A stretch of 64,000 bases of DNA from Escherichia coli (lineage in GTDB: Bacteria > Pseudomonadota > Gammaproteobacteria > Enterobacterales > Enterobacteriaceae). Positions 4,789 to 28,922 of this stretch are shown here, piece after piece. The notes under the pieces are model-generated. The model searched no databases. It was not told the origin of the DNA and worked only from the letters and a program-made list of their open reading frames with translations. Each line of letters starts with the position of its first letter. Position 1 is the stretch's first letter. The position numbers and the translations under genes were made by a program. Location: NCBI RefSeq assembly GCF_022846255.1, contig NZ_AP025682.1; one strand, 5' to 3'.

Positions 4789-4849
4789 TAGCATTACAGA
4801 AGCTCTTCCAGGAGGGGCTTCGATAATGACCTGATAACTGGAAAATAAA

Positions 4850-5422
4850 ATGACTAAGAAGCTGAAAGCAAAACACGAGGTGTTTTGTCGCGAGTTTCTT
4901 GTCGATCTGAATGCTACACAAGCAGCTATTCGCGCAGGCTACGTCTCCAGGCGAGCACATGTTACGGGGGCTGAACTATACGGTAAACCTGAGATACGCG
5001 CCCGTATTAACGAGCTAAAGCAGGAGCGTATTGATCAACTGGGCATTGATGCGAATTATGTGCTGATACGACTGGTTGAGATCGACAGGCTCGATGTGGC
5101 TGACATCCTGGAGGACGATTTAAGTATTAAGCCTCTGTCTGCGTGGCCGGAATCGTGGCGTCGGTACCTGAGTGGATTTAACCTCGCTGAAATGTTTGAG
5201 GGGCGAGGAGATGACAGAGAAATGGTCGGGATCCTTAAAAAGATTAAGTGGCCTGATAAGGTTAAAAACCTTGAGTTGCTTGGGCGTCATGTTTCTGTTC
5301 AGGCGTTTAAAGACAACGTCAAAAATGAAGTGACTGGCGCTGATGGAGGACCCGTCAGAACAGAAATTACCAACTTAACGCCGGAGCAGGCTGCAGAGGC
5401 GTATAGAAAAATGATGGGCTAA
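4850..5422 (+). CDS. Terminase small subunit
   Basis: 190 aa; N-terminal [16 protein letters not shown] motif typical of phage small terminase; directly upstream of large terminase. Confidence 0.8.
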
Positions 5423-21915: not shown

Positions 21916-23114
21916 TGGCTCTGAACCTTGATTCTCTCGGTTTATCTGCAAAGGTAACCGCGGAGGGGATCAGTGCGCCTGATTATCAGACGATACTCAG
22001 CACCCTGATTAGCTATTTTCAGCAGATTTATGGCAGTGATGCCTACCTCGAACCGGACAGCAAAGACGGCCAGATGGTGGCTCTGACGGCGCTGGCGATT
22101 CATGATGCCAATAATATGGCGATAACTGTCTACAACTGTTTTTCACCGGCAACCGGCTATGGGGCTGCACTGACCAGTAACGTGAAAATAAATGGTATTT
22201 CACGTAAAGGCGCGACGAACTCTACGGTTGATTTGCTTCTTACAGGAACTGCCGGAACAACCATCATTAATGGCAGCGTGAAAGACAGTAATAATGTGAT
22301 ATGGCGTTTGCCTGCTTCAGTGGTGGTCGGCGTGGATGGTACAGTGATGGCGACCGCAACATGTTCCGTCAGTGGTGCAGTGGCGGCGCTGGCTGGAACT
22401 ATCACTGAAATTAATACGCCAACCCGTGGCTGGGTTTCGGTAACTAATCCTGCTGCGGCTACTGTTGGCTCTCCGGCAGAAACTGATGCTGAGTTACGTA
22501 TCCGCCAGTCGCAAAGTGTTGCGTTGCCATCAATAACCCCATTTGAAGCACTGGATGGTGCTGTTTCTAATGTTACCGGTGTAACCCGCCACAAACTCTA
22601 TGAAAACGATACTGGTTCGGAGGACGGTAACGGGTTACCGCCACACTCTGTTGCTGTAATTGTGGATGGCGGTGATGTGACGGATATTGCTCAGGCTATC
22701 AGAGGGAATAAAGGCCAGGGGACAGCCACTCACGGTACAACATCCGTTACGGTTCCGGATAAATACGGCAATCCCCATGTAATCAAATTCTCGCGTTCCA
22801 GTGATGTGCCTGTTTATGCCCGGATTAAATTAAAAGTTTTTACGGGTTATACCTCACAGATAGGGCAGCAGATCCAGCAGGCTATTTCCGACTATATCAA
22901 TAGTTTGACGATTGGTGATTCGGTCCTTTTAAGTCGCATTTACTCACCGGCGAATCTTGGCGTGGTGAGTGGCGGGAATGCACGCTATTACGATATTCAG
23001 GAACTGACGATTGGGAAATCCCCGGGGGCTTTGTCGTCATCAAACATTGATATCAGATACAACGAATCTGCGTCCTGTACCCCGGAAAATATCGTTATAA
23101 CGGTGGAGTCATGA
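21915..23114 (+). CDS. Putative baseplate J-like protein (Mu gp47-like)
   Basis: 399 aa; position and size in Mu-like baseplate order. Confidence 0.5.
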   Translation: MALNLDSLGLSAKVTAEGISAPDYQTILSTLISYFQQIYGSDAYLEPDSKDGQMVALTALAIHDANNMAITVYNCFSPATGYGAALTSNVKINGISRKGATNSTVDLLLTGTAGTTIINGSVKDSNNVIWRLPASVVVGVDGTVMATATCSVSGAVAALAGTITEINTPTRGWVSVTNPAAATVGSPAETDAELRIRQSQSVALPSITPFEALDGAVSNVTGVTRHKLYENDTGSEDGNGLPPHSVAVIVDGGDVTDIAQAIRGNKGQGTATHGTTSVTVPDKYGNPHVIKFSRSSDVPVYARIKLKVFTGYTSQIGQQIQQAISDYINSLTIGDSVLLSRIYSPANLGVVSGGNARYYDIQELTIGKSPGALSSSNIDIRYNESASCTPENIVITVES

Positions 23115-23791
23115 GCAAATACACCGAACTAATCACGAACTACCACGCCACCAAACCTAAATTTCTTGCGCATGTTGATCTGATGACCCGGCCGCTTATT
23201 GATGCTGCGGCGGCCACCAGAGGGCTGATTACTGCATTTGATATTGACTCTGCGGTTGGTGTGCAACTTGACATTCTGGGATTGTGGATCGGACGTAGCC
23301 GTGTTGTCAGCCAGCCTATCTCAGGTGTCTATTTCAGCTGGGATACCGACGGGCTTGGATATGATCAGGGGGTATGGCAGGGACCATACGATCCTGATTC
23401 CGGATACATGTACCTCAGCGATGAAACTTATCGTGTCATTCTTAAAGCGAAGATTGCGATTAATAACTGGGATGGACGGAATGATTCGCTTCCGGCAATT
23501 CTTGACGCTGCAACAGCAGGATCCGGGCTGCGAATGCAGATAGTCGATAACCAGGACATGACGATATCGGTCTGGGTCTTTCCTGATACTGATATTTCAG
23601 ATGTATCGCGTGAGTTAATTGCGGCAATTAAACAGGGGTATCTCACAGTAAAAGCCGCCGGGGTATGGGCGGGTGGCATTGAAACACCTTCGGTGGAAAC
23701 CCCATCGGAAGGCTCAAAATTTTTTGGTTTTGATATGGATAACGAATTCATCAGTGGTTTTGATGTAGGAGCATGGGGAGTATTACTCTGA
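23111..23791 (+). CDS. Putative tail protein (Mu gp48-like), immediately upstream of tail fibre
   Basis: 226 aa; ATGA overlap with the tail-fibre start. Confidence 0.45.
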
Positions 23792-24609
23792 TGGCGAAAA
23801 ATGACTTTAAAGCGTTTGCAACGGATCGAAATGCCAATGTTATATCGCAGGAGGAATGGGAAGCGTTGCCCGCGCTTGTATCCGGATTTACAGCAGGGAA
23901 AGCCTCCAGTGCGCAAGTCAATAAGGTTATTCGGCAGGCCAGCTTTATTGCTGCAGCTCTGGCCCAGTTTGTAAGTGATAAAACGCAACGGGATGTGCTT
24001 GATAATGGTGATCTGCCCGGTTTTGTTGAATTGCTGGGATCGGGGTTTGCTGTTGAATACCTGAGCCGCAAGAATCCGTTTGGTGATATCAAATCGGATG
24101 GCACGGTGAAAACGGCTCTCGAAAACCTTGGTTTGGGAGAAGGCTCTGCATTACCTGTTGGTGTGCCTGTTCCGTGGCCCTCCGCAACCCCGCCAACGGG
24201 CTGGCTGAAATGCAACGGCGCTGCCTTTGATAAGGTGAAATATTCCCATCTTGCTACAGCATATCCATCAGGGAAACTACCTGATCTCCGTGGTGAGTTT
24301 ATTCGTGGATGGGATGACGGGCGTGGTATTGATGCAGGACGTGCTTTATTGAGCATTCAGACTGGGATGCTGGAAAAACACCGCCATATTGTTGTTGCCA
24401 ACGATGGGTATGATTCAAAAGAGGAATGGGAACTGGCGACAATCTTCAGAAGAGCATATACGCAAGGCCGGGGGCTTGATGCTGCCGATGCCGGAGGAAC
24501 TCTGATTCCATCACCAACGCTACATACACGAGGGAGTATTGGTAACACAGGTGGGAGCGAAACCCGTCCACGAAATATTGCATTTAACTATATCGTGAGA
24601 GCTGCATAA
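23791..24609 (+). CDS. Tail fibre protein: constant N-terminal part fused to variable C-terminus in the current orientation of the invertible segment
   Basis: C-terminal collar-like motif [16 protein letters not shown]; gene spans the left crossover site at 24116-24141; likely start ATG 23791 (the ORF track's ATG 23773 is in frame). Confidence 0.7.
24116..24141. repeat. Left crossover site of the invertible segment (hix/gix-like 26-bp site)
   Basis: CTCTCGAAAACC-TT-GGTTTGGGAGAA; its inner half-site is a perfect inverted repeat of 26069-26080. Confidence 0.65.
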
Positions 24610-25211
24610 TGGATAAAGCCGTATTAAATAGCGAACTTATTGCCACGAAGGCGGGGAATATTACCGTCTATAACTATGATGGTGAAACACGGGAATATAT
24701 TTCCACTTCAAATGAATATCTTGCCGTTGGTGTCGGTATCCCGGCATATTCCTGTTTAGATGCTCCTGGCACATATAAGGCTGGTTATGCAATCTGCCGT
24801 TCAGTAGATTTAAACTCATGGGAATATATGCCAGACCATCGCGGTGAAATTATCTATAGCACCGAAACAGGAGAAGCAAAAGAAATCACAGCTCCGGGTG
24901 ATTACCCTGAAAATACAACCACTATCGTCCCGTTAACGCCATATGATAAATGGGATGGTGAGAAATGGGTGACAGATTCTGAGGCACAACACGGTGCCGC
25001 AGTAGAAGCGGCAGAAGCACAGCGCCAGTCACTGATTGATGCAGCAATGGCTTCCATCGGTCTGATTCAGCTGAAATTACAGGCCGGACGGAAGCTGATG
25101 CAGGCAGAAACAACCCGGCTTAACGCTGTGCTGGATTACATTGACGCGGTGACGGCAACAAATACCAGCACAGCGCCGGATGTCATCTGGCCTGAACTGC
25201 CGGAGGCGTAG
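24609..25211 (+). CDS. Tail fibre assembly protein (U-like)
   Basis: 200 aa; ATGA-coupled to tail-fibre stop. Confidence 0.7.
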   Translation: MDKAVLNSELIATKAGNITVYNYDGETREYISTSNEYLAVGVGIPAYSCLDAPGTYKAGYAICRSVDLNSWEYMPDHRGEIIYSTETGEAKEITAPGDYPENTTTIVPLTPYDKWDGEKWVTDSEAQHGAAVEAAEAQRQSLIDAAMASIGLIQLKLQAGRKLMQAETTRLNAVLDYIDAVTATNTSTAPDVIWPELPEA

Positions 25212-25626
25212 GCCATTCAATATCTGGCGCACAGGAAGTATCGACCAGTTCCAGTGCGTCCAGATAATCCAGCCATAAATTATATTGCTCCAGCTCGTTA
25301 CCTTTCAGACGACCAATAGCAGCTTTGCCAGGCCACTGATGGGTATTGATGTAAGTATTGGCTTCTGAAACCAAAGATATTTTTTTCATTTCAGCCATCA
25401 ACACCTCATCCTCTTTTGAAGGCGGTGGGGAATTAATCCATATTGGCCGTCCTGAACTGTCAGCGCCAATTTCTTTCCCTTCTGGATGCAGCCCAAGAAA
25501 TTGCTCATATGTTTCTCGGGTAATTTCAATAACATCATCTGGAAGCGTTCCCGCATCCTCATATTCTGGAAACAATTCTTGTAGATAAAAACTTTTACTT
25601 CCGGGTGAAAAGAATACTGAGTTCAT
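25183..25626 (-). CDS. Alternative tail fibre assembly protein (U'-like)
   Basis: 147 aa on the opposite strand inside the invertible segment; 3' end converges with tfa. Confidence 0.65.
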   Translation of the reverse strand: MNSVFFSPGSKSFYLQELFPEYEDAGTLPDDVIEITRETYEQFLGLHPEGKEIGADSSGRPIWINSPPPSKEDEVLMAEMKKISLVSEANTYINTHQWPGKAAIGRLKGNELEQYNLWLDYLDALELVDTSCAPDIEWPTPPAVQAR

Positions 25627-25628
25627 TA

Positions 25629-26080
25629 TTACCGTCCAATGATTAACGCTGAGACGCTGGTATCTGAAGGAAAGGCTGCATTCAGTGGTTTGTCGACTTT
25701 GAACACAATCGTATTATTCCCCCTGACAGCGGCAAAAGAACAAACCGCAGTCGCGTATGAACCTGTAATATTACTGGATACACCACCATAAGCTGTTGTT
25801 GATACCAGAGGGATAACGCCCAGCACCTTATTAGGAAATACAAAGGGCAATGTGGCTGTGGCAATATAAGACTTATTAGAGCCTGTGATGGCATAAGCAT
25901 TATCAGTCATTCCATTCATCGCCACCGGGCCGCTTATACTTACAGTAACCATCTGAATGATTAGCCCGTCAGGTTGACGAATCACAAAATTTCCATTGCC
26001 ACCAGTAACCGTCCAGAAAGACATATCAGGGATTTGGTTTTCCCCGTTGCCCACATTCCGTTTTGCCGCTTCTCCCAAAC
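25629..26080 (-). CDS. Alternative tail-fibre variable C-terminal segment (Sv'-like); no own start, expressed only after inversion
   Basis: Open frame runs from the right crossover site; encodes GLGE at the site, matching LGLGE at the left site in the expressed fibre. The ORF-track start at 26123 lies outside the segment. Confidence 0.6.
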
Positions 26081-26094
26081 CAACGTTTATGAAA
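26069..26094. repeat. Right crossover site of the invertible segment
   Basis: TTCTCCCAAACC-AA-CGTTTATGAAAA. Confidence 0.65.
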
Positions 26095-26149
26095 ATGCAG
26101 AAATAACGAGCAAATGGCATCATTCCTGCTTTTGTCAGGGAGATCTACC

Positions 26150-26704
26150 ATGCTTATTGGCTATGTACGCGTATCAACAAATGACCAGAATACCGATCTA
26201 CAACGTAATGCGTTGAACTGTGCAGGATGCGAGCTGATTTTTGAAGACAAGATAAGCGGTACAAAGTCCGAAAGGCCGGGACTGAAAAAACTGCTCAGGA
26301 CATTATCGGCAGGTGACACTCTGGTTGTCTGGAAGCTGGATCGGCTGGGGCGTAGTATGCGGCATCTGGTCATTCTGGTTGAGGAGTTGCGCGAACGTGG
26401 CGTTAATTTTCGCAGCCTGACGGATGCTATTGATACCAGCACACCGATGGGGCGTTTTTTCTTTCATGTGATGGGGGCCCTGGCTGAAATGGAACGAGAA
26501 CTGATTGTTGAACGAACAAAAGCTGGACTGGAAGCTGCTCGCGCACAGGGACGAATTGGTGGACGTCGTCCCAAACTTACACCAGAACAATGGGCGCAGG
26601 CCGGGCGACTAATTGCATCAGGAGTTCCTCGCCAGAAGGTGGCGATCATTTATGATGTTGGCGTATCGACTTTGTATAAGAAGTTTCCGGTCGGAGATAA
26701 ATGA
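26150..26704 (+). CDS. pin: Serine-recombinase DNA invertase (Pin/Gin/Hin family)
   Basis: 184 aa from MLIGYVRVSTNDQNTDLQRNAL; catalytic Ser in VRVSTNDQ; C-terminal HTH; AGGGAG SD; adjacent to the invertible segment. Confidence 0.85.
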   Translation: MLIGYVRVSTNDQNTDLQRNALNCAGCELIFEDKISGTKSERPGLKKLLRTLSAGDTLVVWKLDRLGRSMRHLVILVEELRERGVNFRSLTDAIDTSTPMGRFFFHVMGALAEMERELIVERTKAGLEAARAQGRIGGRRPKLTPEQWAQAGRLIASGVPRQKVAIIYDVGVSTLYKKFPVGDK

Positions 26705-26784
26705 AACCGTAGCACGTCGTATGCAAGAACGTGCCACGGCTGGCTGATAAGCTTGTAAAAATATTGAACAGGGAGTGGAGCATT

Positions 26785-27432
26785 CTATGAAGCTAATTTG
26801 TTTAATTTCATTTGTAGTGACTTTACTTCTTGGTCGATAATGTCGAATCCCTTATTGACAGCATCTCTTAGCTCTGCATCAATATTTTTTATCCCTTGAG
26901 CATAATCTACCATTACATTTATTTTTGCATCATGTAATCTCTTATACATGGTTTTATCTTTGTTATTGTCTGCCATGCCAATAAGGATTTTTTCATAATC
27001 CTCAATGAGTTTGTTGTTTCCTTTAAATGATTGTATTAATGAGCGTGAATATGTGTATATGTTAATTATTGAGTCTCTAGCAGAATCATTTAGTTTTGCA
27101 ATGACATTCGCATTTTGCTCATAGAATGTGAAATTATCATCCCCTACAGGGAATGTGAGAATCAACATTTGTCCCGGTTTTATATTATCAATGTGTGTTT
27201 TCATCCTTTTATTATATAAATTGATTAGGGTGAAAACTTCTCCCTTAACTCCTTTTAATACTGAAAGTTGTAATTCAAGGGATTCTCTTTCTGTCTCTAC
27301 TTTAGACAGCTTAGCTTGTTGGGTAACTCCTTTTAGGGTAAACCATCCGCCAATAAGAGTACCAACTAGAGCTGTGAGGGAGGAGGATAACCATCCAGGT
27401 ATGCTATTTAAAAGATTACTAAATTCACTCAT
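26785..27432 (-). CDS. Hypothetical membrane-anchored protein (N-terminal TM helix plus charged helical region); cargo gene
   Basis: 215 aa; hydrophobic segment WLSSSLTALVGTLIGGWFTL then K/E-rich region; AT-rich composition unlike flanking DNA. Confidence 0.5.
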   Translation of the reverse strand: MSEFSNLLNSIPGWLSSSLTALVGTLIGGWFTLKGVTQQAKLSKVETERESLELQLSVLKGVKGEVFTLINLYNKRMKTHIDNIKPGQMLILTFPVGDDNFTFYEQNANVIAKLNDSARDSIINIYTYSRSLIQSFKGNNKLIEDYEKILIGMADNNKDKTMYKRLHDAKINVMVDYAQGIKNIDAELRDAVNKGFDIIDQEVKSLQMKLNKLAS

Positions 27433-27490
27433 TATAAGTACTCGCTAATATTGAACGATATATATATCAAATTATTATAAAACTCGTCAG

Positions 27491-27769
27491 CTACTGGAGC
27501 AGGCTACCTGAACTTCGATCTATTCCTGCATCCATATAGTTGATGGTCTTCTGGAGCTCTTCGATTAGGGCAACAGCTTTTGCTCGAGAAATGCATATTA
27601 GTTGATCCGGAAATTCTTGTAAGGGCCAGTTTGGTATACAGGCCATGTTATCAGTGAAGGATGCAGACAAGTAAACTTCATTGGTAACCAGAGAATAGCT
27701 TACCTCAAAATTGGTGAGTTCCGGCAAACTGCTAACGTTTGACTCTTTTCTGCGCATAATATTATCCAT
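27491..27769 (-). CDS. Hypothetical small protein (cargo gene; start uncertain, ORF could extend to 27919)
   Basis: 92 aa from MDNIMRRKE; the longer 142-aa frame includes a PPP stretch encoded by a C10/G10 tract; no strong SD at either start. Confidence 0.35.
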   Translation of the reverse strand: MDNIMRRKESNVSSLPELTNFEVSYSLVTNEVYLSASFTDNMACIPNWPLQEFPDQLICISRAKAVALIEELQKTINYMDAGIDRSSGSLLQ

Positions 27770-27851
27770 GACTGTAATTATGTACAGGTGATGGTCTTCA
27801 ATTTCGAAGAGGGAGTCAAGGGGGAGTCTCAAATGAACCGTTATAGAAAAA

Positions 27852-27861
27852 GGGGGGGGGG
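27852..27861. repeat. Homopolymeric tract G10 (C10 on the coding strand of the cargo gene)
   Basis: Ten consecutive G at 27852-27861. Confidence 0.9.
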
Positions 27862-28073
27862 ATCTTTGTGTTGCTGAACTTATGCAAAATTTTTTTGCAC
27901 CATAAATCCAACAACACATTCAATAACACATTGCTGTATCACTATGAAAATAAATGTGTTTTTATTTGATTTCACACATATCACAATTGATGCATTTTTT
28001 AGTGATTAACAGCGCCATAAGGAAACTCTCAAAACAACACAAACCGGGCGGGCATTATACGCGCATTCTTTAC

Positions 28074-28922
28074 TCAGACCAGTTTTTTCACCAGCGCTTC
28101 GCTATGACGAATACGTTCTGGTGCCAGTTCCAGATCCTGCTGAATCAGCGCAATGAACAGCAAATCCGTTAACATTCCCTGCGCGTGACAAGCAGAGATT
28201 GAAGCACTGTTTGTCGCTTGTTCTTCGGCAATGGTATACAGGCAATGAGAAGCACGCTGTTGCAGGGCATTGGGAGTAAAGCCGGTAATAGCCAGCACTT
28301 TTCCGCCCACTCGCAGCATCTCATCTGCCGCCAGGTTTAACTCGCGTCGTACACCGGTGTAGGAAATGGCTAATAACAGATCGTCAGGGGACGACGCCTG
28401 TACTGTAGCGAGTAGCGCATGCATATCGCGCACTGCGGCAGCATTGAAGCCAATCTTCATCAGCTTCCAGGCAAAGTTTTGCGCCACCAGACCCGAAGCG
28501 CCAATACCGGTCAGAATTATCCGCCGCGCAGAGCGCAACATTGCCACGCATTCATGCAGTTTCTCTTCACTATTAACGTTTAACGTTGCGTACATAGCGG
28601 CAGTATTTTCTTTAATCAGTTTTTCGCCGACCAGCCGTAACGGATCATCACCGCGGATTTGGTTATGAATGGGCACGGAGGGAGATTCCGGCTGGCTTGC
28701 CAGCGCTTCACTCAACGCCAACTTTAGTGCCGGAAAACCTTTATAGCCGAGTTTTTGCGCGAACTTCACGACGCTGGATTGACTGACTCCGGCTTCGTTG
28801 GCCAGTTGCTGAGAGCTTAAATGGCGCGCCGTATCAGGTTGTAGCAGCAGATAATCCGCCAGTTTTTTATCACTCTGGGCAAGCCCCTGGTAACGCTGAC
28901 GGATACGAAGTAAGCCGTTCAT
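28074..28922 (-). CDS. yfhH: RpiR/SIS-family transcriptional regulator YfhH
   Basis: 282 aa from MNGLLRIRQRY; N-terminal HTH, SIS domain (ILTGIGASGLVAQ); conserved context next to pgpC-tadA-mltF-purL. Confidence 0.8.
   Translation of the reverse strand: MNGLLRIRQRYQGLAQSDKKLADYLLLQPDTARHLSSQQLANEAGVSQSSVVKFAQKLGYKGFPALKLALSEALASQPESPSVPIHNQIRGDDPLRLVGEKLIKENTAAMYATLNVNSEEKLHECVAMLRSARRIILTGIGASGLVAQNFAWKLMKIGFNAAAVRDMHALLATVQASSPDDLLLAISYTGVRRELNLAADEMLRVGGKVLAITGFTPNALQQRASHCLYTIAEEQATNSASISACHAQGMLTDLLFIALIQQDLELAPERIRHSEALVKKLV

Follow-up and report, generated by a model that had tools for sequence, protein, structure and literature searches.

Does the tail-fibre gene of a prophage in this Escherichia coli genome (RefSeq assembly GCF_022846255.1, contig NZ_AP025682.1) run into a DNA segment that can be inverted, so that one fibre tip is exchanged for another, and if so, to which kind of switch does it belong? 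The stretch of DNA analysed, here called the window, is 64,000 nucleotides long. The locus is very probably an e14-type P inversion module, composed of two pix sites, two convergent cassettes of a tip and its chaperone, and pinE, and carried by a SEN34-like myovirus prophage. A Pin-type tail-fibre switch with these flip sites is already known from K-12 e14, and the system is of a textbook kind. The features are listed by position in the window:

23791..24141, plus strand: constant N-terminal part of the tail-fibre gene (117 aa, common to both fibre forms)
24064..26705, no strand: portable e14-type module, to the bounds of which DNA homology to K-12 e14 is confined (blastn)
24116-24141: left crossover site, hix/gix-type, CTCTCGAAAACC-TT-GGTTTGGGAGAA, core dinucleotide at 24128-24129
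24142..24609, plus strand: variable fibre tip A, the one now expressed as part of the fibre (whole fibre, 272 aa)
24609..25211, plus strand: tfaA, tail-fibre assembly chaperone for tip A (200 aa)
25183..25626, minus strand: tfaB, assembly chaperone for tip B, currently silent (147 aa)
25629..26069, minus strand: variable fibre tip B, at present separate from the constant part (146 aa following GLGE)
26070-26095: right crossover site in 12-2-12 register, TTCTCCCAAACC-AA-CGTTTATGAAAA, core at 26082-26083
26096..26123, minus strand: short leader (MMPFARYFC...) with its ATG outside the segment, opening an ORF across the right site into the pin-facing tip
26150..26704, plus strand: pin, serine DNA invertase (184 aa, full length)
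26172..26234, no strand: putative recombinational enhancer within the 5' end of pin (motif scan)

The fibre start at 23791, which is also in the list of open reading frames, is the one called by PGAP in a 98.9% identical genome, and residues 1-122 are covered by the PHROG tail fibre family phrog_11303. In tip A, Pfam recognizes a Phage Tail Collar domain (PF07484, Collar, E=2.3e-13), and PHROG tail collar fibre families match it as well; its 58% amino acid identity to K-12 stfE marks it as a variant form of that StfE tip. Its chaperone shows 89% amino acid identity to K-12 TfaE and matches phrog_105 (tail fiber assembly, E=3.6e-95). On the opposite strand, tfaB, the 3' end of which overlaps tfaA convergently by 29 bp, encodes a protein with 56% amino acid identity to K-12 TfaP, nearly identical over the last 60 aa, that falls into phrog_188 (E=2.2e-54). 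Tip B has a weak match to Pfam Gp53-like_C at its C-terminus (E=9e-4), and sequence similarity to the K-12 StfP tip was undetectable. The fibre and Tfa proteins matched no NCBIfam family.

According to the original prediction, inversion would replace the current fibre C-terminus and its assembly gene with the set encoded on the minus strand, and an inversion carried out in silico bears this out. The first 117 residues are retained and joined in frame to tip B, resulting in an uninterrupted fibre of 263 aa, and tfaB begins 2 nt past its gene. The design is, on sequence, frame-preserving: both fibre forms (272 aa and 263 aa) share their 117 N-terminal residues, and each tip is followed by its own tfa. 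A further statement was that the alternative C-terminus lacks its own start codon; this is correct within the segment, but the frame stays open through the right site and reaches an ATG beyond the segment, at 26121-26123.

As for the crossover sites, they had been placed at 24116-24141 and 26069-26094. The left position stands, whereas the right one is off by one base, the 12-2-12 register giving 26070-26095. The two 26-bp sites are inverted relative to each other and bound a 1.95-kb segment. Their cores, TT on the left (within the Leu codon CTT) and AA on the right, are mutually inverted and matching, and the inner half-sites are exact inverted copies, in agreement with the perfectly inverted 12-bp half-sites of hix/gix type that had been described. 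Aligning the two sites, a check proposed at the time, gave 21/26 matches over the entire sites, 7/12 in the outer half-sites and a perfect inverted repeat of 15 bp (24128-24142 / 26069-26083), the longest inverted repeat within 23700-26800. Comparison with K-12 establishes both sites, each being 26/26 identical to a P-segment site of e14 by blastn (left, L005 3779-3804; right, L005 5606-5631), and both align with Mu gix. The 14-mer TTCTCCCAAACCAA has exactly two copies in the window, which are the two crossover sites, on opposite strands. A scan with this 14-mer tolerating 2 mismatches, for which 0.59 matches are expected by chance in the window, found no third crossover site in the segment or the rest of the 64 kb. 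A Min-like multi-state shufflon was also considered, and rejected given the absence of further crossover sites from segment and window.

The adjacent gene (26150-26704) encodes the 184-aa Pin-like serine recombinase that had been noted there, with 96% identity to K-12 PinE and 78% to Mu Gin. It contains the Resolvase (PF00239, E=1.1e-51) and HTH_7 (PF02796, E=7.3e-14) domains, and among solved structures Gin 3uj3 is the best match (E=1.3e-93). PinE and Gin have the same R7, S9, D64, R65 and R68, Ser9 being the catalytic serine. An inactivated invertase gene, which had been named as evidence against switching, is not what we find, with pin full length and the catalytic residues intact. Also invariant with PinE and Gin are Q150, R153 and L154, corresponding to the residues by which Hin contacts Fis (Gln151, Arg154 and Leu155, in helix 1 of the DNA-binding domain; PMC3798978). 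Two Fis-consensus-like 15-mers, matches to a degenerate motif in coding DNA, lie at 26172-26186 and 26220-26234, exactly 48 bp apart. Centre to centre, the proximal one and the right site are ~97 bp apart, and the Hin enhancer is located ~100 bp from hixL, within the invertase gene (PMC3798978). Both 15-mers are identical in K-12 pin and match at 15/15 and 13/15 in Mu gin, a conservation to be expected anyway, since the same DNA encodes the invertase N-terminus. Inversion would probably depend on Fis here. A sigma-70 scan for promoters of pin and the leader ORF returned 11 sites versus 7.7 expected by chance, none convincingly placed, and so gave no sign of orientation-dependent expression of pin.

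Among related genomes, both orientations occur. In OkiPb01695, cassette A (99.0% identical) lies on the opposite strand at the same yfhH locus, between flanks that are 99.7-100% identical. In CFS3292, cassette B (97.9% identical) is turned round and joined to the constant part, and a 97.1% identical tip B is fused to the constant part in CD45; fused fibre forms are annotated in all three genomes. The TfaB protein WP_001089533.1 is encoded in CFS3292 behind the constant part, at the other end of the segment from where it lies in PS1Thumoskin9. Over 5,426 complete E. coli genomes, cassette A forms its junction on the constant side in ~557 genomes and on the pin side in ~817, and cassette B in ~64 and ~165, respectively. 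The presence of both cassettes in both orientations indicates that inversion occurs in this family of loci. The outer half of the left site stays with the constant region and the outer half of the right site with pin (five related loci), the base adjoining the 15-bp repeat travels with the cassette, and the isomer breakpoints fall inside the 15-bp repeat. Because an exact flipped copy of this segment was not found in complete E. coli genomes (the best full-length match to the inverted query being 94.9% over 91%), the orientation evidence is that of cassette-level isomers. An out-of-frame junction in Z1323CEC0003, suggested by a PGAP pseudogene call on the fused fibre, was discarded as an annotation quirk, the translation being uninterrupted. 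For the K-12 P segment, attributed together with PinE to Plasterk & van de Putte 1985 as cited in PMC4272514, there are qPCR/PCR measurements of inversion by PinE (PMC12529663), and inversion was seen in read mapping (PMC4272514). The segment studied here is predicted to invert in this strain as well.

Concerning the setting of the module, the constant fibre N-terminus is unrelated to e14 up to a point 52 bp short of the left site. DNA upstream of the module is 97% identical to vB_EcoM-606R2, on which a literature search found no paper, and 82% identical to Salmonella phage SEN34, from which an invertase is absent. Flanking the e14-type module are myovirus tail genes of the SEN34 kind and yfhH; by this homology the host element is the prophage of a SEN34-like (Brunovirus-like) myovirus, adjacent to yfhH and distinct from e14. 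Judging by a 98.9% identical relative, which has the full set of head, tail and baseplate genes, it looks complete and virion-forming; its left end lies beyond the window. A tRNA scan of the window found none that could serve as attachment site, an Rfam scan of 23000-28500 gave no match, a 215-aa downstream ORF had no match in PADLOC, PHROG or NCBIfam, and a 142-aa ORF had none in PADLOC.

In the mechanism that we propose, Pin dimers would bind both 26-bp sites, and host Fis on the putative enhancer inside pin, at its 5' end, would lead to an invertasome. A cut at the central TT/AA dinucleotides, followed by a rotation of 180 degrees, would invert positions 24129-26082. The present state would display the constant part with tip A (Collar, 272 aa), assembled with the chaperone TfaA, and the inverted state the constant part with tip B (gp53-like, 263 aa), assembled with TfaB. 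A lysogen population would then yield virions of two receptor specificities, and host-range switching by this prophage is the probable outcome.

The ORF opened by the leader raises the question of whether the switch could instead be chiefly an anti-phage device of the host, the pin-facing tip being made from it as a free receptor-binding protein that would mask receptors of the outer membrane. The model for this is StfE2, composed of the stfE leader and the gp53-like StfP tip, which is produced upon inversion of the K-12 e14 P segment and was reported to block T2 adsorption (PMC12529663). A corresponding ORF of leader and tip B is present (25629-26123, 164 aa, found mechanically) and is called as a CDS by PGAP in the closest genome, under the name 'hypothetical protein'. 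The leader is nearly equal to that of K-12 stfE, the counterpart of this ORF, Mu too has an in-frame ATG in the corresponding stretch, and tip B likewise carries a gp53-like domain. However, an AGGA motif directly abuts the first leader ATG, which is poor spacing, promoter matches are no better than chance, tip B lacks detectable similarity to StfP, and the defence claim comes from a single study of a cryptic element. Moreover, the prophage appears, from its 98.9% identical relative, to be complete and virion-forming, so that the canonical role applies. We regard an anti-phage device as unlikely. The anti-phage role and the virion host-range role are compatible with each other.

A dual output, in which virions would be given one tip while the other is made from the leader ORF as a free receptor-binding protein that shields surface receptors of the lysogen from competing phages, in the manner claimed for StfE2, seems to us still less probable. 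If it were true, an intact temperate phage would couple its choice of host range to a complementary state of superinfection exclusion.

Alternatively, the module could be an inert relic in this strain, with sites and gene intact on sequence, in which inversion no longer takes place at a meaningful rate, for example with pin unexpressed, and the fibre is effectively fixed as tip A. The lack of a convincing sigma-70 promoter upstream of pin in the scan would fit with this, as would the two closest relatives with an A-type tip, PS1Thumoskin9 and MINF_1D, which share the orientation of the window. On the other hand, pin is 100% identical at the nucleotide level to that of OkiPb01695, where the segment, at an identical locus, is oriented the other way. 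Cassette B has remained intact, with no stops in its ORF, and is 98% identical to expressed copies in other genomes, and these sites can also be recombined in trans by further invertases of the Pin family that the cell contains (PMC12529663). We thus consider an inert relic highly improbable.

That the inverted repeat arose by chance, or from shared GLGE coding in two homologous fibre genes with no role in recombination, has next to no probability: it does lie in coding sequence and encode an identical peptide on both strands, but the 26-bp sites are those of e14 over their full length, with the outer halves that lie beyond the repeat, exact 14-mers are confined to the two crossover sites in 64 kb, and orientation isomers break exactly at the sites, so that the comparative data refute it within in-silico limits.

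With the reading as an e14-type inversion module retained, exact coordinates are now given for the crossover sites, both fibre forms and the module bounds, which has little import beyond annotation. The 'hypothetical protein' beside pin is the presumably unexpressed fibre tip, and assemblies may differ at this position by genuine inversion instead of assembly error. The 2.6-kb e14-type module travels as a unit among unrelated prophage backbones (lambdoid e14, P2-like and Brunovirus-like). The prediction for those who study phage in this strain is that virions will be of two types, differing in their receptors.

Comparison with Mu G and e14 P, as the original prediction had suggested, gave sites 26/26 identical to those of e14 within a Mu-like architecture. 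With the Mu G segment and Gin, the locus shares the constant S part, the arrangement [Sv U / U' S'v], an invertase pointing away from the segment and 78% identical, sites of 12-2-12 format and conserved sequence around the candidate Fis sites. It differs in the length of the segment (~1.95 kb versus ~3 kb in Mu), in the sites, as gix reads TTCCTGTAAACC-GA-GGTTTTGGATAA, and in the fibre, which is much shorter here (272/263 aa) and ends in unrelated tips. Mu G(+) and G(-) particles differ in host range. The P1 C segment with Cin and p15B with Min likewise have Fis-dependent fibre-switching invertases, of the family to which Pin belongs; Min acts on six crossover sites with many isomers, in contrast to the two sites found here, with which two states are possible. 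The Salmonella H segment is similar in invertase subfamily, site format and the position of the enhancer (putative here), which for Hin is ~100 bp from one site within the invertase gene (PMC3798978), but Hin flips a promoter for flagellin genes, whereas here a fusion of coding sequences is switched. Recombinase-activated phage inhibition by PinQ and StfE2 (PMC12529663) involves the same sites and segment type, and a leader ORF that would give an StfE2-like protein is present here; the inhibition was shown only for K-12 e14, the tips of which differ from these. The e14 P segment itself is set apart by its location in a lambdoid remnant at icd (here, a SEN34/Brunovirus-like myovirus prophage at yfhH), its length of 1,797 bp (here, 1,954 bp), the downstream mcrA, which is absent here, and an StfP tip to which tip B bears no detectable similarity. 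The two agree as follows: both 26-bp sites are identical, the invertase (96%), TfaA/TfaE (89%), TfaB/TfaP (56%) and tip A/StfE tip (58%) correspond, the genes come in the same order, with the convergent tfa genes overlapping by 29 bp, and a leader ORF adjoins pin in each.

The DNA between the two crossover sites, a segment of 1.95 kb, together with the adjoining recombinase gene, is supported in its reading as an invertible tail-fibre switch; inversion in the strain at hand, and an effect on host range, would follow from the sequence features listed here (sites in 12-2-12 form as read from the sequence, genes and frames from the ORF list).

23791-24609, plus strand, tail-fibre gene, 272 aa
24116-24141, left crossover site, CTCTCGAAAACC-TT-GGTTTGGGAGAA
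24609-25211, plus strand, fibre assembly gene (tfaA), 200 aa
25183-25626, minus strand, assembly gene inside the segment (tfaB), 147 aa
25629-26069, minus strand, open frame (tip B) running into the right site
26070-26095, right crossover site, TTCTCCCAAACC-AA-CGTTTATGAAAA
26150-26704, plus strand, recombinase gene (pin), 184 aa, beyond the right site

Read inversely, the two inner half-sites match each other perfectly, in line with the original prediction of shared inverted 12-bp halves; extended by the core dinucleotide and one more base, they make up a perfect inverted repeat of 15 bp (24128-24142 / 26069-26083), longer than which none was found in the region. The left 26-bp site stands as first placed, while the right one, put at 26069-26094, was one base off the 12-2-12 register; save for this 1-bp shift, the observation is confirmed. 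The 14-mer TTCTCCCAAACCAA occurs just twice in the 64-kb window, once per site (chance expectation with two mismatches allowed, 0.59 matches), and as a scan of the same window found no third crossover site, only two states are possible.

The first 117 residues of the fibre end in ...ALENLGLGE, coded by the left site itself, and the crossover dinucleotide falls inside a Leu codon, with tips A and B both in frame with GLGE. When 24129-26082 was reverse-complemented in silico, an uninterrupted 263-aa fibre was obtained, having the same 117 N-terminal residues followed by tip B, and tfaB starts 2 nt past its stop, so that the proposed swap of the fibre C-terminus with its assembly gene is reproduced by the simulated form. 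Tip A carries a Phage Tail Collar domain, tip B matches a gp53-like C-terminal domain weakly, and both assembly proteins match PHROG tail-fibre-assembly families. At their 3' ends the convergent tfaA and tfaB share 29 bp (25183-25211), exactly like tfaP and tfaE of K-12 e14; U and U' of Mu have no such overlap. The LDYIDA/LDYLDA motifs, homologous C-terminal elements of both chaperones, account for an imperfect inverted repeat of 18 nt (25130-25147 / 25256-25273).

The recombinase was rightly called Pin-like: it combines a Resolvase with an HTH_7 domain, shows 96% identity to K-12 PinE and 78% to Mu Gin (its best solved structural relative), and retains the catalytic Ser9 and conserved Arg/Asp residues. 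As a member of the Hin/Gin/Cin/Pin family, it would be expected to need host Fis, bound to a cis enhancer, for inversion. A scan with a degenerate Fis 15-mer gave one pair exactly 48 bp apart (26172-26186 and 26220-26234, in coding DNA), with the centre of the proximal 15-mer ~97 bp from that of the right site; the Hin enhancer lies ~100 bp from hixL, and Q150, R153 and L154 of the recombinase are conserved counterparts of Fis-contacting Hin residues (PMC3798978). Both 15-mers recur unchanged in K-12 pin and match at 15/15 and 13/15 positions in Mu gin, a conservation that is not proof, because the same DNA encodes the conserved invertase N-terminus. The putative pair and the contact residues thus agree with the Fis-enhancer model rather than prove it.

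Both orientations were found among related genomes. In the closest complete genome, PS1Thumoskin9 (98.9%), the arrangement and its place, adjoining yfhH, are the same. OkiPb01695, with the same yfhH site, a constant part 99.7% and a pin 100% identical to those of the window, carries cassette A (99.0% identical, full length) on the opposite strand adjoining pin, with another gp53-like tip fused to the constant part. In CFS3292, whose prophage lies at pphA, cassette B (97.9% identical) is inverted and joined to the constant part, the fused fibre being annotated as a 792-nt CDS followed by a Tfa protein; the pphA prophage of CD45 shows the same flipped fusion, of a cassette B that is 97.1% identical. 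The same prophage type occupies two chromosomal places, adjoining yfhH and adjoining pphA/yebW. In all loci compared, the outer half-sites are fixed, one with the constant part and the other with pin, while the base just inside the 15-bp repeat moves with the cassette, which confines the exchange to the repeat, as cleavage at the central dinucleotide would predict. Using 265-bp junction-specific queries on 5,426 complete E. coli genomes (at least 80% coverage; counts approximate), cassette A was found joined to a constant part in ~557 genomes and to the pin side in ~817, and cassette B in ~64 and ~165, respectively. At the B position (25629-26069), otherwise 97-100% identical prophages (loci L002, L003, L007 and L008) carry at least three gp53-like tip alleles, all starting after the site with the linker AAKR(N/D)VG.G.NQIPDM.

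The alternative C-terminus was described as having no start codon of its own, which holds inside the segment, but this frame extends past the right site as far as an ATG at 26121-26123, outside the segment, and so makes up a mechanical 164-aa ORF. PGAP annotates it as a CDS, and it opens with a leader matching the one in K-12 stfE; the corresponding e14 ORF after inversion is claimed to yield StfE2, a free tip blocking T2 adsorption (PMC12529663). That a similar free tip is made here, which would be compatible with a fibre switch, seems improbable, given that the AGGA motif directly adjoins the ATG and that a promoter scan returned nothing better than chance; nothing in the sequence indicates expression of the leader ORF.

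The backbone carrying the switch is not e14. On the upstream side, the DNA matches the records vB_EcoM-606R2 and vB_EcoM-611R5 at 97% identity and, at 82%, SEN34, a Salmonella phage of the genus Brunovirus, which has one fibre and one tfa gene and no invertase; in this type phage the entire module is absent, with an O-acetyltransferase downstream of the fibre genes in its stead. Since the backbone is SEN34-like and SEN34 lacks the invertase, the 2.64-kb module has been grafted onto the fibre gene of another phage. The window opens within the prophage, at a gene for a VapE-like primase (16-1938, by comparison with NZ_CP180607), so the left end, integrase and attachment site lie outside it; no tRNA gene was found in the whole window. 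Integrity can be judged from a near-identical relative, where the head, tail, baseplate and lysis gene set is full. Between pin and yfhH lies an AT-rich minus-strand stretch (26785-27919, GC 0.32-0.38 versus ~0.48 around), probably cargo at the right end of the prophage, with two ORFs:

26785-27432, minus strand, ORF of 215 aa, no match in PHROG, NCBIfam or PADLOC
27491-27919, minus strand, ORF of 142 aa, no match in PADLOC

The deposited phage records that come closest have an annotated invertase CDS of only 315 nt and an annotated pin-proximal tip of 168 nt. ON470588.1 (vB_EcoM-611R5; invertase CDS at 4819-5133) also extends into the host gene yfhH and so resembles a prophage prediction in which the switch is damaged or annotated differently.

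The comparison with the Mu G and e14 P segments that had been proposed places the system among known ones. Mu has the same layout, constant S followed by the G segment and gin. The two 26-bp sites match those of the K-12 P segment in every base and equal the e14 repeats TTGGTTTGGGAGAAGG / CCTTCTCCCAAACCAA given in PMC12529663, where e14 inversion by PinE and PinQ was measured, and both orientations were seen in clonal MG1655-derived cultures (PMC4272514). The stretch homologous to e14 at the DNA level extends from 24064, which lies in the fibre gene 52 bp to the left of the left crossover site, up to the pin stop codon (26705), and both mosaic boundaries are sharp. Within this stretch, K-12 TfaE is 89% identical to TfaA, the StfE tip 58% to tip A (with a divergent middle) and TfaP 56% to TfaB, while the StfP tip has no detectable sequence similarity to tip B. 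This is the known Pin/P module of e14 type, one of the textbook Gin/Cin/Hin systems; it is present in thousands of E. coli genomes, annotated pinE, and differs from K-12 only in its backbone (a prophage at yfhH that is Brunovirus-like) and in its tip-B allele.
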